From: Bryobacterales bacterium
GTDB taxonomy: Bacteria; Acidobacteriota; Terriglobia; Bryobacterales; Bryobacteraceae
DNA length: 64,000 nucleotides
Assembly (NCBI GenBank): GCA_963698105.1
Contig: CAVOPN010000015.1
Coordinates: 154,692-218,691, forward strand
Direction of reading: 5' to 3'
Part shown: positions 11,945 to 19,047 of the stretch, one piece after another
Numbering within the stretch: the first letter of the stretch is position 1
How the letters are laid out: each line of letters starts with the position of its first letter
Translations under genes and position numbers: made by a program
The notes under the pieces: model-generated
The model's input: only the letters and a program-made list of their open reading frames with translations
What the model was told of the DNA's origin: nothing
Databases searched by the model: none

Positions 11945-12004
11945 TATGTTGATCCTTTGCGCACTCAACTGGCACAGGCTTCAGCCTGTGATCATTCCCT
12001 GAAT

Positions 12005-12958
12005 ATGTTCTACGCCATCCGCCATCTCACTCAATTCCGCTACGATTCCGCGGTCAGCGAAAGCCTGATGGAAGCGCGCATGCATCCCCGCACGGAGGGC
12101 ACGCAGCGCTGTCTTTCCTTCCAGCTCTCGGTCGATCCGCGGGCGATGGTTTATCAGTATCGCGATTATCTGGGCAATAGCGTGCATCACTTCGATGTTC
12201 CGGGGAAGCATATTCAACTGCGCATCGTGGCCGAAGCGCTGGTCGAAGTGCAGGCCGCGCCGGACCTCCCTAAGCGCCTCGGCGCCGATGCGTGGACCCA
12301 ACTCGATGCGCTCATCGCAAGCGGCGATTACTGGGAAATGCTGATGCCCAGCCAGTTCGCCGAGCCCACGCCCGCGCTGCTCGAGCTGAGCGCGGAACTC
12401 GGCGTCTACCGGCACGAGGATCCGCTGATGTTTCTGCGCGAGTTGAATGAGAGCATCTTTAGCTGGTTCGATTACGTGCCCAAGGCGACGCATGTCGATT
12501 CGCCGATTGACCATGCCATTGAGGCCCGCCGCGGCGTGTGTCAGGATTTCGCGCATATCATGACCGCGCTGATTCGCCACGTGAAAATTCCGTGCCGCTA
12601 TGTCAGCGGTTATCTCTATCCTCACGCGCTGCGTCCGGACCGGTCCTCGGAAGGCGCGACGCACGCCTGGGTGGAGGCTCTGCTGCCCGGCCTGGGCTGG
12701 GTTGGCTTCGATCCCACCAATAATCTGCTGGCGGGCGAGCGCCACATTCGAACCGCCATCGGCCGCGATTACGCCGACGTTCCTCCGACTCGCGGCGTTT
12801 TCAAGGGCAAAGCCTCGAGCGAGCTGACGGTGTCGGTTCGCGTCGCCCCGTCCGACGCGCCGCCTCCGCCCGATGCCGAAATGAGCGCGCCGCCGCTTTG
12901 GGAGCCGGCCCCCGAAATCGAACAAATCGACATCCAGGAACAACAGCAGCAACAGTAG
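12005..12958 (+). CDS. transglutaminase-family protein (Bact_transglu_N plus transglutaminase core)
   Basis: Start MFYAIRHLTQFRYDSAVSES. Catalytic Cys context RGVCQDFAH, then His (THAWVE) and Asp (GFDPTN). Confidence 0.85.
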   Translation: MFYAIRHLTQFRYDSAVSESLMEARMHPRTEGTQRCLSFQLSVDPRAMVYQYRDYLGNSVHHFDVPGKHIQLRIVAEALVEVQAAPDLPKRLGADAWTQLDALIASGDYWEMLMPSQFAEPTPALLELSAELGVYRHEDPLMFLRELNESIFSWFDYVPKATHVDSPIDHAIEARRGVCQDFAHIMTALIRHVKIPCRYVSGYLYPHALRPDRSSEGATHAWVEALLPGLGWVGFDPTNNLLAGERHIRTAIGRDYADVPPTRGVFKGKASSELTVSVRVAPSDAPPPPDAEMSAPPLWEPAPEIEQIDIQEQQQQQ

Positions 12959-12967
12959 ACTGGAATC

Positions 12968-14347
12968 ATGACTGCCAGGCCGCCTTTCCGTAAAGGACTC
13001 CCGATTCTGGGCATGCTGCCGCAATTCCGCCGCAATCCGCCCCAGTTTCTTCAGAATCTCGCACGCGACCATGGCGACCTGGTGCATTATCGTTTGGGCC
13101 ATCAGGACATTTACCTGGTCAGCAACCCGGATTGGATCAAGGACATCCTGGTCACTCATCAAACCAACTTTACGAAGAGCCGTTTCCTCGAACGCGCGAA
13201 GGTCCTGCTGGGCGAAGGCTTGCTTACCAGCGAAGGTGAATTTCATCGCCGCCAGCGCCGCCTGGTGCAGCCCGCGTTCCATCGCGATCGCCTGGCTGGC
13301 TATGCCTCCGCGATGGTCGAGTGCACCGCGCGAACTCGCCAACAGTGGACCGATGGCGCCCAGCTCGACATGTCCCGGGAGATGATGCGGCTCACTCTCG
13401 CGGTGGTGGCGAAAACGTTATTCAGCGCCGATGTCACCAGCGAAGCCGATAACATCGGCGGCGCTCTCACCGAGGTGATGGGGCTGTTCGACATGGTGAT
13501 GATGCCCTTTTCCGAATGGATCGAAAAGCTCCGTCTGCCTTCGGTGCGGCGCTTCGAAAGGGCGCGTGATTTTCTCGACCAGACGATTTACAAGATCATC
13601 GCCGAGCGCCGTGCCGGCACGGAAGACAAAGGCGACCTGCTCTCGATGCTGCTGCTCACGCAGGACGAGGATGGCTCAGCCGGAATGTCCGACAAGCAAA
13701 TTCGCGACGAAGCGCTCACTCTGTTTCTCGCCGGACATGAGACTACCGCCAACGCGCTGATGTGGACGTGGTATCTGCTGTCGCAAAATCCTGAGGCCTC
13801 CACAAAATTCTACGAGGAGATCGATCGAGTCCTCGCGGGCCGACTGCCGGCGTTCGACGATCTTTCAAAACTGAAATATACGGAGGGAGTGTTCGCCGAG
13901 GCCCTGCGCCTGTATCCTCCTGCGTGGGTCATCGGCCGCCGAACCAAGGCCGATTATTCGATGGGCACGTTCACAGTTCCCGCGCGGTCCATACTCACGC
14001 TAAGCCCTTACGTCGTCCACCGCGACCCGCGCTGGTTCCGCGAACCGGATCGATTCCAACCGGAGCGCTGGTCTCTTCCCGACGATCGCCCAAAGTTTTC
14101 CTACATCCCCTTTGGTGGAGGCACGCGCGTTTGCATCGGCGAACGATTCGCATGGATGGAAGGGGTCCTGCTGCTGGCGACGGTTGCGCAAAAATGGCGC
14201 TTCAAACTCGCGCCGGGACATCCGGTCGAAACCGCGGCCTTGATCACTCTACGCGCGAAACACGGGATGAAGATGATCGCGGAACAGCGCTCTCAGAACG
14301 TGACGTTGCCGTCCTCGTCCACGCAATCTCACCCAATCCCAGTGTGA
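12968..14347 (+). CDS. cytochrome P450
   Basis: Heme-binding loop [15 protein letters not shown]-helix AGHETT, and EALRLYPP (ExxR/K-helix region). Starts 9 nt after the transglutaminase gene. Confidence 0.9.
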
Positions 14348-15329: not shown

Positions 15330-15987
15330 CGACGCCGCGATGTTGGGGAAAAGGAAGAACAGCCATAAGCAGCACGAACACCATCCCGCCTTGGACGTAC
15401 GCCGACAATTTGCGGAACCAGCGCACGCTCAAAACATTCAGCAGCACTCCTTCGAGCGCCACCAGGAACAGGAATGCAAACGCGCTCGACGCCAGAATCG
15501 AGGTCCCATGCGCCGCCATCGTAAGGATCAATCCCTGCCATACGCCACGATAAGATACCGCTGGAAATGTCACCGTCGAGACCAGATTCACCGACGCAGT
15601 GAAGGCGATCAGAAACAGCGCCAGGGCACCCACTTTGCCCATAAATATGGTCCGCGAATGGATCGGCAAAGGCATCAAGGTAGCGTAGTCGCGCCGGTCG
15701 GGAAAGAGAGCGTCCCATTCAAGGACGGTAACCGCGCCCATCACCAGCATGGAGAAAGAGAGATAAAGGCATCGGTCAGACCACAACATCGGATAGCGCA
15801 TCTCGCGGGGGAATGCGTCGAGGCCGAGGTACGTCGTGTAGCGCAAAAAGGGCAAGATGATTCCGGGCGAAGCCAGGACCGCCAGCATCTTTGTCACCGT
15901 GACTTGAATCTCGGTATTCTTGGCGACAAATTCGTTGTCGAAGAATCTCCCGAAGAAGTGCCGGATTAGTGCGCCCAGTTGATTCAC
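15256..15987 (-). CDS. polytopic membrane protein, probably the N-terminal part of the same permease
   Basis: 4-nt overlap with the ABC ATPase gene. Hydrophobic until about 15370, then a non-membrane-like tail ([17 protein letters not shown]...). Confidence 0.55.
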   Translation of the reverse strand: MNQLGALIRHFFGRFFDNEFVAKNTEIQVTVTKMLAVLASPGIILPFLRYTTYLGLDAFPREMRYPMLWSDRCLYLSFSMLVMGAVTVLEWDALFPDRRDYATLMPLPIHSRTIFMGKVGALALFLIAFTASVNLVSTVTFPAVSYRGVWQGLILTMAAHGTSILASSAFAFLFLVALEGVLLNVLSVRWFRKLSAYVQGGMVFVLLMAVLPFPQHRGVGGAVESPEFLGALRVSACLVPGDE

Positions 15988-16751
15988 GCGCTCTTCATGA
16001 CCTCCACAATTGAGTTCGCGGTGGTCTCTGTGTCCTGCTCCAGCACCAGCTCGGAAAAAATATCTTCGAGCGAAGGGAGCTGCATGAGGTTCCGCAAAGC
16101 CTCCACGGTATCATTGGCCGCGATGCGTCCCTTGCGCAGAATCATCACGTGCGTGCAAACTTTCTCGACCACTTCCAGCACGTGGGAGCTATATAAAATG
16201 ATCTTCCCCTCGCGCGCCAGCGACTTTACCAGGTCGCGAAACACCAGGCCAGTGGTTACATCGAGGCCGGAGAGAGGCTCGTCGAACACGAGGATGTCGG
16301 GATTATGCAGCAGGGCCGACGAGATCAGCACCTTTTGACGCATCCCTTTCGAATAGGATCCAATCGGGGAATGGCGCGCGGGTCCCAGCGAGAAGAGCTG
16401 CAATAAGTCGTCGATCTTGCGGTCCAGCGACTTCTTGGGAAGCGCGCGCAGCCGGCCCACCAGCTGCAAATACTCGCGTCCGGTCAAGTGCGGATAGAGA
16501 TGCGCCTGTTCCGGAACATAACCCAGCCGCCGCTTATATTCGATCAACTGCGATTGAATGCTGCGCCCTTCAAACAGCACCTCGCCGCGAGTGGGCTCGA
16601 GCAGGCCGGTAATGATGTTGACGGTGGTGCTTTTGCCGGACCCGTTCGGGCCCAGATATCCGAGCACCTCATAAGGCTTGACGGAAAAACTAACGTCGTC
16701 AACCGCCGTCGTCGTGGTGTAGCGCTTGGTCAAGGCGCGAGCTTCGAGCAT
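15984..16751 (-). CDS. ABC transporter ATP-binding protein
   Basis: Walker A GPNGSGKST, signature YSKGMRQKV, Walker B ILVFDEPLSGLD, and an H-loop SSH. Confidence 0.9.
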   Translation of the reverse strand: MLEARALTKRYTTTTAVDDVSFSVKPYEVLGYLGPNGSGKSTTVNIITGLLEPTRGEVLFEGRSIQSQLIEYKRRLGYVPEQAHLYPHLTGREYLQLVGRLRALPKKSLDRKIDDLLQLFSLGPARHSPIGSYSKGMRQKVLISSALLHNPDILVFDEPLSGLDVTTGLVFRDLVKSLAREGKIILYSSHVLEVVEKVCTHVMILRKGRIAANDTVEALRNLMQLPSLEDIFSELVLEQDTETTANSIVEVMKSA

Positions 16752-17053: not shown

Positions 17054-17266
17054 TCACGCGAAGATCAGACGGCGGCCTTTGGGTTTTGGAACCGGGTCGC
17101 CAAACTCATTCGCAGTGTCGATCCAAAGACGAATGGCTTCCTGCGCACTTGCGAGGGCCGCTTGCTGCGTGGGGCCGTGGGCAGAGCAGCCCGGGAGTTC
17201 GGGCGCTTCAGCGATGAAGGTCTGATCTTCGTCGCTCCAGTAGATGATAACTTCGTATTTGTTCAT
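17054..17266 (-). CDS. hicB: HicB-family antitoxin
   Basis: MNKYEVIIYWSDEDQTFIAEAPELPGCSAHGPTQQAALASAQEAI, a typical HicB_lk_antitox fold. 4-nt overlap with the upstream hicA. Confidence 0.85.
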   Translation of the reverse strand: MNKYEVIIYWSDEDQTFIAEAPELPGCSAHGPTQQAALASAQEAIRLWIDTANEFGDPVPKPKGRRLIFA

Positions 17267-17514
17267 TCGACATCCACAAGTTTATACCGCAGAAGAACCG
17301 TTCGCACCTGCTTCACTTGGTATGGCTTTGCTTGATTGCCATCCCGTTGCAAGTTGATTTGTTCTTCTACTCCTGCCTTTCGAAAGAGGTGATGGCTGCC
17401 TTTTATCCGTTTCTCAAAACGCAGGCTTTCGAGCAAGCCGCACAGATCGTCAAACCGAATGTTCGCATCGGCCTGTGTGCTGAGTACCTGACGCAGTGTC
17501 TTCGATATGCCCAA
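17263..17514 (-). CDS. hicA: HicA-family mRNA interferase toxin
   Basis: 83 aa with the KGSHHLF motif and a ...AKPYQVKQV tail, located immediately upstream of hicB. Confidence 0.8.
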   Translation of the reverse strand: MGISKTLRQVLSTQADANIRFDDLCGLLESLRFEKRIKGSHHLFRKAGVEEQINLQRDGNQAKPYQVKQVRTVLLRYKLVDVE

Positions 17515-17563: not shown

Positions 17564-18508
17564 CTACTTCTCAATCCTGACCAACCCAACCAACTCTAGC
17601 GGGTAATTCCTCTGCCTCCACGCTTCGAAGCCGCCTTCCAGGGGACGGACGCGGGTTATCCCGAACCTTTTGAGTTGCAGCGCCGCACGGGCGCTGGTGG
17701 CTTCGTTTGGTCAAGTGCAGTAGAGGATGATATCTCGATCGCGGGGGATTTCCAGATGTCTTTCCTCCAGCTCCTTGCGGTCGAACCATAGTGCGCCGGG
17801 GATCTTCGCGCCGTCGTTTGCGAACTCTTCGGCGGTGCGCAGGTCGAGAATGAACACATCCTTGAGCTGAGACTTTAACTCTTCAGGCTTGATGCGGGCT
17901 ATGCGCAGGCTTCTGATAAATCTGCGGCGCTGATAGTATTTCCAGAGGATCCACAGGGTCATCGCGCCGCCCAAAACTGCGAATAAGCCTCCGCCGAGGC
18001 GCGCCGCGTAGGCGGCTACGTCTTCCAGTTGCGTGCGGAAGACGTGGCCTAAACAGAGAAACGCGCCGGCCCACAGGAAACCGCCGAGCCCGTCCGCGCC
18101 CAGGAATTTCCACCACTTCATTTTGGATAATCCGGCCATCGGGGGCGCCACGGTGCTCAACCCGGGCACGAATTTCGCGATCACCAGCGCCCATCCGCCG
18201 AGCCTCTTGAACCAGTAACGTGTGGAGGAAACGCAGGAATCCGGTTCGAGCGAGATGCGGCACAGCAGTTTGAGAACGGACGATCCCTTGACGCGTCCGA
18301 GGCCATACCAGGCGCCGTCGGCGGCCATCGACGCGGCGATCGATAGAGATAACGCGCCGGCCCAGGAATATTTTCCGGTACCGATCAGAGCGCCCATCGC
18401 GAGCAATACCGGCATTGCGGGGATCGGCGCGCCGAGCTGCTCCGCCAATACCATCGCGAATAGCACCGGGTAGCCGTGCCGGAGCAGAAACTCCATCGGG
18501 TGATGCAT
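17564..18508 (-). CDS. DedA (SNARE-associated) membrane domain fused to a rhodanese domain; in-frame TGA at 17713-17711 (candidate selenocysteine codon, or a nonsense mutation)
   Basis: The ORF track ends at ...RDIILYCT-TGA. The same frame continues PNEATSARAALQLKRFGITRVRPLEGGFEAWRQRNYPLE... to a TAG at 17566-17564, which completes the rhodanese fold. Confidence 0.55.
17678..17696 (-). promoter_or_regulatory. SECIS-like hairpin: 7-bp stem CAGCGCC/GGCGCUG with loop CGUGC, starting 14 nt 3' of the in-frame UGA
   Basis: Perfect inverted repeat read directly from the sequence. The UGA-to-loop distance is 21 nt and the second loop position is G. Confidence 0.35.
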
Positions 18509-18516
18509 CTTAAAAG

Positions 18517-19047
18517 TTAAGCCGAGCGGGTGAGTTCGGTATCGATGGTGATGTGCACTTCGTCGCTGATGGCTACGCCGCCCGCTTCGAGGACCATGTT
18601 AAAGACGAGGCCGAAATCGCTGCGCAGGATGGTGGCTTTGGCCGACGCGCCGCGGCGGAAAAGGCCCATCGGATCCTTAATTTCCGGGGTCACATCCTCT
18701 ACATCGAGGTCGATGGTTTTGGTCACGCCGTGCAGCGTCAAATCGCCTACCACCTCATAGCTGTCATCGCCCGATTTTACAACTTCCTTCGAGACAAAGG
18801 TCATGGTCGGAAATTTCTCGACATCGAAGAAATCGGCGCTCTTCAGATGCGCGTCGCGCTGCGGCTCGCGCGTGCTGATGCTGTTCACGTCGACGGTCAC
18901 ATTGATGCTCGATGCCGAGGGATTTGCGTCGTCCAGCACGACGGTGCCGGACACTTTATCGAAATCTCCTTTCACATTGGAAACCATCAGATGGCGGACC
19001 TTGAATTGGGCATGGGTATGCGCGGGATCGATTTGGTAGTTAGGCAT
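18517..19047 (-). CDS. YceI-family (polyisoprenoid-binding) protein
   Basis: IDPAHTHAQFKVRHLMVSNVKGDFDKVSGTV and LTLHGVTK, typical YceI lipocalin-like motifs. Confidence 0.85.
   Translation of the reverse strand: MPNYQIDPAHTHAQFKVRHLMVSNVKGDFDKVSGTVVLDDANPSASSINVTVDVNSISTREPQRDAHLKSADFFDVEKFPTMTFVSKEVVKSGDDSYEVVGDLTLHGVTKTIDLDVEDVTPEIKDPMGLFRRGASAKATILRSDFGLVFNMVLEAGGVAISDEVHITIDTELTRSA

Follow-up and report, generated by a model that had tools for sequence, protein, structure and literature searches.

The question raised by this locus is whether a TGA triplet inside a conserved protein domain acts as a stop codon or encodes selenocysteine (Sec). The locus lies in a 64,000 nucleotide (nt) stretch of contig CAVOPN010000015.1 from a Bryobacterales bacterium; this whole stretch was analyzed and is referred to as the window. 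An open reading frame (ORF) on the minus strand, positions 18508..17711, encodes 265 amino acids (aa), has the C-terminus ...PRDRDIILYCT and is closed by TGA at 17713–17711. When translation is carried on past the TGA in the same frame, it runs through exactly 48 sense codons, PNEATSARAALQLKRFGITRVRPLEGGFEAWRQRNYPLELVGLVRIEK, before it reaches TAG at 17566–17564. The original prediction, which was made from the sequence alone, proposed that the gene encodes a fusion of a DedA membrane protein with a rhodanese and that the TGA is a Sec codon. The TGA after ...RDIILYCT, the 48-codon read-through and the TAG are all found where it placed them. Comparison with related sequences indicates that this is very probably a genuine selenoprotein gene with a conventional bacterial Sec insertion sequence (SECIS). 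This reading follows from a Cys/Sec pair, from conservation of the coding sequence downstream of the TGA, and from a covarying hairpin that is specific to Sec forms. The features concerned are the following.

17564..18508, minus strand: predicted recoded coding sequence, consisting of 265 codons, the UGA (Sec266), 48 codons and TAG; product of 313 residues
17711..17713, minus strand: in-frame TGA, predicted to be read as Sec266, in the rhodanese active-site loop C264-T-U266-P-N-E; a Cys column, with conserved TGA in relatives
17717..17719, minus strand: Cys264 codon TGC, the putative partner of Sec266 in the C-x-U motif; canonical catalytic position in 4/5 profile alignments
17678..17696, minus strand: predicted SECIS hairpin, within codons 271–277 (T-S-A-R-A-A-L); identified by its fold, the bacterial SECIS criteria and covariation
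17567..17710, minus strand: 48-codon extension 3' of the UGA, with the post-loop helix, the RVRPL strand and the GGxxAW element; completes the rhodanese fold
17564..17566, minus strand: predicted true stop codon TAG, from the read-through translation
17612..17887, minus strand: rhodanese domain PF00581, residues 208–299, E = 3.2e-15; from Pfam and PDB sequence matches

The gene start was taken as ATG 18508 from the ORF list; in the database, the twin P0001 starts at Met5 and has 261 aa. The rhodanese is the C-terminal third of the 313-residue DedA fusion and is not a stand-alone single domain. Pfam shows a DedA domain that is complete upstream of the UGA. The rhodanese match (PF00581) is complete only when the 48-codon extension is included, which bears out the earlier claim that the downstream codons complete the rhodanese fold. 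The 265-residue product present in databases would stop inside the active-site loop and would be without a foldable rhodanese domain.

Database homologues, of which the read-through protein has thousands, show what is normally found at the position of the TGA. Among the best 120, approximately 100 are 261–266 aa in length, end at the same point and cover 83–84% of the read-through query, and the homologues that end there span identities from 100% to approximately 63%. Some of the entries are named "VTT domain-containing protein [Bryobacteraceae bacterium]", others are named DedA proteins, and the nearest relatives carry the label Bryobacteraceae. About 19 relatives are full length (300–321 aa; one, which is N-terminally truncated, is 276 aa) and all of these have ...LYC[S/T/N/A]-C-P-N-E.... 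Residues C264, C266, P267 and E269 are invariant in 17 full-length relatives. The TGA thus occupies a conserved Cys column, as had been expected from a C-x-C-P-N-E motif in related rhodaneses.

The TGA itself is kept at the same column in orthologues that are 67–89% identical. Two orthologues (79% and 67% identical) share the gene order Pribosyltran - YceI - DedA/rhodanese, and in the DNA of both this codon is TGA and a conserved extension of 47 codons comes after it. The annotation shows a 150–200-nt "intergenic" gap at this place, which is explained by the unannotated extension.

A metagenome scan with the pattern TAYTGYNNNTGACCNAAYGARGC (YC-x-TGA-PNEA), which forces the TGA and specifies nothing beyond the sixth codon, gave at least 120 stretches. 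Nearly all of them read on in frame for 41–68 codons with the sequence ...G[IV]xxVRPLxGGxxAW.... The exceptions among the stretches listed are L188, which is unrelated, and L103 and L164, which have a disturbed frame. The DedA parts of the stretches listed have only 35–60% identity to the window protein, which shows that the TGA is old and maintained.

The pattern of base changes indicates that the extension is translated in the TGA frame and is under purifying selection. In 107 distinct sequences the entropies at codon positions 1/2/3 are 0.93/0.86/1.63 downstream of the SECIS and 1.26/0.99/1.70 upstream. A comparison of the window with L082 over 39 extension codons shows 12 synonymous and 6 nonsynonymous differences. 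Purifying selection on the 48 downstream codons, on which the original prediction was to stand or fall, is seen here as an entropy concentrated at third positions in a pattern like that upstream.

The hairpin begins 14 nt after the TGA and has a perfect stem of 7 bp, with a 5' arm CAGCGCC (17696–17690), a loop CGUGC (17689–17685) and a 3' arm GGCGCUG (17684–17678). The UGA-to-loop distance is 21 nt, and loop positions 2 and 3 are G and U. The stem, the loop, both spacings and the G at loop position 2 had been described beforehand and are confirmed at these positions. The hairpin alone folds at -12.8 kcal/mol. A consensus model of the bacterial SECIS (bSECIS) has an apical loop of 3–9 nt, a stem of 4–16 bp, 16–37 nt between the UGA and the loop, a G within the first two loop positions that is usually followed by G or U, and an MFE (minimum free energy) of -7.5 kcal/mol or lower (PMC13188914). 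The window element (7 bp, CGUGC, 21 nt, -12.8 kcal/mol) lies inside the limits of this model on all four counts, and the suggestion that it lies within bacterial SECIS ranges is upheld. Hairpins were counted as at least as good if the Watson-Crick stem had 7 bp or more, the loop had 3–9 nt with G at its first or second position, and the spacing was 16–37 nt. They follow 10 of the 1750 TGA triplets in the window (0.57%; both strands, all frames), a rate that is suggestive; the decisive evidence comes from the comparison with relatives, which lies far outside chance.

Compensatory changes in relatives, named earlier as a check on the hairpin, are present. The hairpin is found in the same register in 117 distinct Sec-form sequences, and loop position 2 is G in all of them. 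The loops are CGUGU, CGGGU, CGUGC, CGGGC, AGGAU, AGUUU and GGUCU. The stem variants are compensatory, i.e., GCGCC/GGCGC, GUGCC/GGCAC, GCACC/GGUGC, GGCC/GGCC and GGCG/CGCC. In an alignment of 75 distinct sequences 86.7% of cells are paired and six of the seven pairs have changed on both sides. The covariation score is 0.219 compared with 0.088 in shuffles and was reached by none of 500 shuffles; every slid register is lower both on cells paired and on covariation score. The outermost pair (columns 17 and 35) is formed by two third codon positions, Thr ACC/ACG with Leu CUG/CUC, and covaries as C-G/G-C (Fisher p = 3e-6).

A comparison with Cys-type genes shows that these properties are associated with the UGA. 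The source of Cys forms was a genome-contig scan, in which one pattern contained a Cys codon; it gave at least 80 loci with matches that span the TGA column at a best-segment identity of 46–64%. The column holds Cys in 29/29 of the genome-contig loci with a located C-x-C-P motif. The control for the hairpin consists of 30 Cys-type genes with a similar peptide, SAR[V/T/M/L]A[L/F], at the same place. An MFE <= -7.5 kcal/mol is present in 100% of the 117 Sec forms but in 23% of the 30 Cys forms (Mann-Whitney p = 9e-13), and the four core pairs are all intact in 98% of Sec forms and in 20% of Cys forms. Codon choice differs as well. The loop Arg codon CGC is the commonest in Cys forms (14/25) but is absent from Sec forms (0/111), where Arg is encoded by CGU or CGG and the G[U/G] loop signature results. 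Sec forms have Ala as GCC (104/115) and Val as GTG (85/93), whereas Cys forms mix GCC/GCG/GCT and GTC/GTG. Third-position entropy at stem codons 7 and 9 falls to 0.31–0.49 in Sec forms. This contrast in pairing and codon choice implies that the RNA structure is selected only where a UGA needs to be recoded.

Several points weigh against a selenoprotein or narrow the evidence for it. Genes selA, selB and selD and a tRNA-Sec were not found in the 64-kb window or in approximately 1.3 Mb of related loci, an extent that is uninformative for a genome of several Mb. For the proteins, 20 long ORFs of the window were scanned with Pfam, and SelA, SelB and SelD of E. coli served as tblastn queries; for the tRNA, ARAGORN was used, which shows one tRNA (Leu) in the window and no tRNA-Sec. 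The fold energy of a 71-nt segment is unexceptional in comparison with shuffles (z = -0.34) in this stretch of 59% GC. Such a value in GC-rich coding sequence means that thermodynamics alone proves nothing, and the comparative tests are relied on. In Rfam no match of SECIS type appeared, either at the gathering threshold or with the limit relaxed to E <= 10, and the only matches were two chance ones. None was expected for so short an element as a bacterial SECIS; Rfam's SECIS families were not looked up. The metagenome set was chosen for the TGA, so that its size is uninformative on the Sec:Cys ratio and only its unselected downstream features are evidential. The Cys control is small, with 30 sequences that are more distant on average. 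The hairpin is also not strictly diagnostic, since the closest of the Cys orthologues (P0002/L206; 76% identical, with TGT and in the same synteny) still has an identical one. As to the active site, an ungapped alignment to 6mxv (1/5) places residue 266, not C264, at the catalytic position, and the chemical role of Sec266 is one that we infer from the sequence.

Locus L206 (L206:10001-10942) has TGT at the Sec column and keeps the complete CAGCGCC-CGUGC-GGCGCUG. Its hairpin is an apparent fossil SECIS that would have remained after a recent Sec-to-Cys replacement.

Support for Sec machinery comes from the lineage and is indirect for this gene. A 2006 survey reported Acidobacteria with three selenoprotein families, and its supplement has SelA, SelB and Sec-FdhA sequences from Solibacter usitatus, a member of the Acidobacteria (PMC1794560). 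Solibacter-like SelA proteins with 69–90% identity are abundant in soil metagenomes and metagenome-assembled genomes. In sample ERZ26871208 (L210-L213) a DedA-rhodanese gene of the TGA form is on a contig of 705 kb, and three other contigs (142 kb, 397 kb and 1.56 Mb) each have a Solibacter-like selA; this is co-occurrence at the level of the sample and not of the genome. In L209, L212 and L213 selA adjoins efp, not selB.

Other explanations of the TGA can be weighed against these data. If it arose by a recent nonsense mutation, the locus would be a fresh pseudogene of a Cys-type DedA-rhodanese gene in which the downstream codons have not decayed. A single base change from TGC or TGT is enough for this, a Cys-type orthologue is present in the same synteny (L206), and Sec machinery is not seen in the window. 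This was the alternative put forward in the original prediction itself, and it is refuted by an old, shared TGA and by purifying selection in frame. The TGA is at the same column in the 67–89% identical orthologues and in the at least 120 stretches with DedA parts 35–60% identical, the sequence downstream has codon periodicity and an excess of synonymous change, and constraint on the synonymous sites of the hairpin is limited to TGA forms. Such a pattern of conserved TGA, downstream constraint and hairpin constraint cannot result from recent nonsense mutations that arose independently, and a pseudogene is extremely improbable. A UGA that is decoded in some other manner, i.e., by near-cognate read-through (Trp, Cys), by a suppressor tRNA or under a reassigned code, can hardly be credited either. 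UGA is the leakiest stop codon, and no tRNA-Sec was seen in the window and related loci. However, TGA is the commonest stop in the window, where it closes about half of the long ordinary ORFs, and this shows that the codon is not reassigned. The column holds Cys in homologues and not Trp or Gly, a covarying hairpin with a SelB-type loop (G[G/U] at the correct spacing) is maintained only in TGA forms, and the rhodanese CxU is a recognised Sec family.

A different possibility is that Sec is inserted but that the UGA mainly terminates translation. In that case the functional product would be a DedA protein of 265 residues that ends in a rhodanese stub, and read-through to Sec would be minor or conditional, e.g., on selenium. 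Sec insertion in bacteria is inefficient and in competition with RF2, so that some truncated product is expected; the DedA domain upstream of the UGA is also complete. The rhodanese would nevertheless be cut within its active-site loop, and in Cys-type relatives the full-length protein is the sole product. The extension as well as the SECIS is maintained by selection, which implies that the read-through product is the selected one. A mainly terminating UGA is thus very unlikely.

Insertion of Sec with full-length translation is the preferred reading, and a mechanism can be proposed for it. A complex of SelB-GTP-Sec-tRNASec, recruited by the mRNA hairpin at 17696–17678, would recode UGA 17713–17711 to Sec. 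Translation would then run 48 codons further to TAG 17566–17564. The predicted product is a 313-residue inner-membrane protein with an N-terminal transporter-like DedA/VTT part and a C-terminal rhodanese domain. Sec266 may form a selenenylsulfide with Cys264, or may take a persulfide/perselenide over from Cys264. The rhodanese would be a redox-active or sulfur/selenium-transfer module that is attached to the membrane domain and possibly gates it.

Residue C264 is aligned with the catalytic Cys of solved rhodaneses in four of five profile alignments; the loop is two residues longer than the canonical one and has Sec266 at +2. In the AlphaFold2 model of the Cys orthologue P0002, which has a predicted local distance difference test (pLDDT) score of 80, the central strand ends at residue 263. 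This is consistent with C264 as the canonical position, and we infer that Cys264 has the position of the rhodanese nucleophile.

The membrane part of the protein has the following features.

18044..18424, minus strand: DedA/VTT membrane domain PF09335, residues 29–155; Pfam 51.6 bits compared with a cut-off of 33.9
18233..18262, minus strand: Cys pair C83...C92 (LCRISLEPDSC) in the DedA part; invariant in full-length homologues

The membrane domain makes up the N-terminal two thirds of the protein and is joined to the rhodanese by a basic linker, KYYQRRRF, and by the positive-inside rule the rhodanese domain is probably cytoplasmic. The Cys pair, LCR[IV]SLEPDSC (C83/C92), is invariant in 17 full-length homologues and is present in 63 of the 89 Sec-form DedA fusions among the matches listed. 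In the P0002 model C83...C92 are in a loop of low confidence. The pair might supply a thiol partner to the C-x-U site.

Rhodanese selenoproteins are known, and the Sargasso Sea is one reported source of rhodanese-related members (PMC1088965). PMC9312934 lists the CxU subtype in a table as "COG0607 form 2", and a table in PMC13188914 has it as "form 3, NF041203, CxU" and attributes its prediction to Zhang & Gladyshev (Bioinformatics 21:2580, 2005). The prediction that a published rhodanese selenoprotein family exists is thus correct, and the CxU type is the relevant one. The window protein and the CxU rhodanese modeled by NF041203 share PF00581 and a C-x-U-P-N-E loop in which Sec has the same column, and both loops are followed by the same SECIS hairpin; the hairpin of L105, a metagenomic single-domain form, aligns in register with that of the window. 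They differ in that the window motif is LYCTU and not LYCAU, and in that the window rhodanese is the C-terminal part of a DedA fusion whereas NF041203 models a single domain of 126 positions. L105 also has a hydrophobic N-terminus that appears signal-peptide-like by eye. NF041203 (rhodanese_LYCAU) is the best NCBIfam match of the window protein, with 88.4 bits (U replaced by C), which is below the equivalog cut-off of 115. The scores of other forms are 187.8 for the single-domain L105, a full member, 99.2 for L169, and 100.4 for L131, a fusion to a Na/H exchanger. Judged by domain, motif and SECIS, the window rhodanese is a member of the known CxU class. It falls outside the NF041203 equivalogs, and as a DedA fusion it has a distinct architecture.

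Other known systems are more distant. The window hairpin is like the E. coli fdhF SECIS and bSECIS elements in that it is inside the ORF just after the UGA and has a small apical loop with G and then U/G. It has no sequence similarity to the fdhF element, lacks the bulged U (some subfamilies have a bulged C), and its binding of SelB is predicted. Compared with the DedA/VTT proteins UptA, an undecaprenyl-phosphate transporter, and the E. coli DedA paralogues, the window protein has a VTT domain above the gathering score and weak NCBIfam similarity over residues 29–195. It is, however, far below the equivalog cut-offs of UptA and PRK10847 (44.5 vs 250 and 37.8 vs 236), and it has the Cys pair LCRISLEPDSC and a C-terminal rhodanese selenodomain. 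TsoB (NF045694, rhodanese/DsbD fusion-like) also has a Sec-containing rhodanese fused to an integral membrane domain, but its membrane partner is DsbD-like and its motif is UxxxxU with two Sec. The window protein scores 15.7 bits with NF045694 compared with a cut-off of 805 and is not a member. No description of such a fusion came up in a full-text literature search that combined selenoprotein with DedA or SNARE-associated, which does not prove that the literature has none. The selenium rhodanese type has been known since 2005, and the DedA fusion appears to be undescribed.

The C-x-U rhodanese is also found on other proteins. The metagenome matches listed, from the at least 120, include 89 DedA fusions, 6 fusions to Na+/H+ exchangers (PF00999), several single-domain forms and 10 without an assigned architecture. 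Some of the single-domain forms have a hydrophobic N-terminus that is signal-peptide-like by eye. In L118, L131, L144, L173, L193 and L205 the C-x-U-P-N-E rhodanese and the same SECIS are C-terminal on PF00999 proteins of approximately 500 residues (CPA-type Na+/H+ exchangers), where the motif is LIAYCA-U-PNEATSARVAQELRQAGW. These exchangers are unrelated to DedA and represent another transporter class with the selenodomain.

A neighboring gene is close to the start of the DedA-rhodanese gene.

18517..19047, minus strand: YceI-like gene, upstream of the DedA-rhodanese gene by 8 nt and in the same orientation; from the ORF list, a recurrent neighbor of DedA-rhodanese genes

The two genes are probably co-transcribed. 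In 184 DedA-rhodanese loci (Sec and Cys forms) the same-strand upstream neighbors within 3 kb are YceI (33), short-chain dehydrogenase (approximately 27), MarR (25) and nitroreductase (approximately 22), and a dCTP deaminase is common downstream on the opposite strand. YceI was considered as an obligate partner and rejected; it is adjacent in 6/64 Sec loci by strict tblastn and in 33/184 by clustering, i.e., it is recurrent and not universal. The gene content hints at an electrophile or redox-stress operon in a part of the family, which would not be universal.

Other sequences in the window were also analyzed. No second convincing selenoprotein candidate emerged when the window was scanned for TGA triplets with coding-like frames on either side. 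Between the predicted true stop of the DedA-rhodanese gene and an ABC ATPase gene (15984-16751) there is a HicB-like antitoxin ORF at 17054-17266 on the minus strand (PF15919, E = 1e-8) and a weak HicA-like ORF at 17263-17514 on the minus strand (PF07927, E = 1.5e-4, below the gathering score). The syntenic loci L081, L082 and L083 have only approximately 200 nt at this place, and the pair thus looks like a lineage-specific toxin-antitoxin insertion. At positions 11981-14347 a cytochrome P450 ORF (12968-14347, plus strand) overlaps an ORF on the minus strand (11981-13342) that has no Pfam match by approximately 375 nt. A similar overlap is present in L081 and L082, between a called P450 gene and a 586-residue gene without a Pfam match; the overlap thus seems to be genuine in the gene calls and not a product of the ORF list.

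The predicted DedA-fused selenoprotein is widespread in soil bacteria and is systematically truncated in annotation. Public records show this gene and approximately 100 close relatives (among the best 120) as proteins of 261–266 residues that are cut at the Sec codon. These records are cut and are not reached by NF041203, so that the selenoproteomes of soil bacteria, especially Acidobacteriota, are undercounted and the architecture of the family is misdescribed. The mechanism of Sec insertion is conventional, and the finding is useful to the specialist and not startling. DedA proteins are poorly understood, and a Sec two residues from the putative rhodanese nucleophile provides a testable handle on what the DedA and Na+/H+ exchanger fusions sense or transfer. 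A speculative possibility, considerably less probable than not, is that the C-x-Sec rhodanese is a portable selenium-based redox/persulfide switch on the cytoplasmic end of membrane transporters. In that case C83/C92 could relay with Cys264/Sec266, and the protein would link lipid/ion transport to stress of the thiol, selenol or electrophile kind, or would itself move sulfur/selenium species. If this is true, the protein would represent a widespread, unannotated membrane selenoprotein of soil Acidobacteriota.

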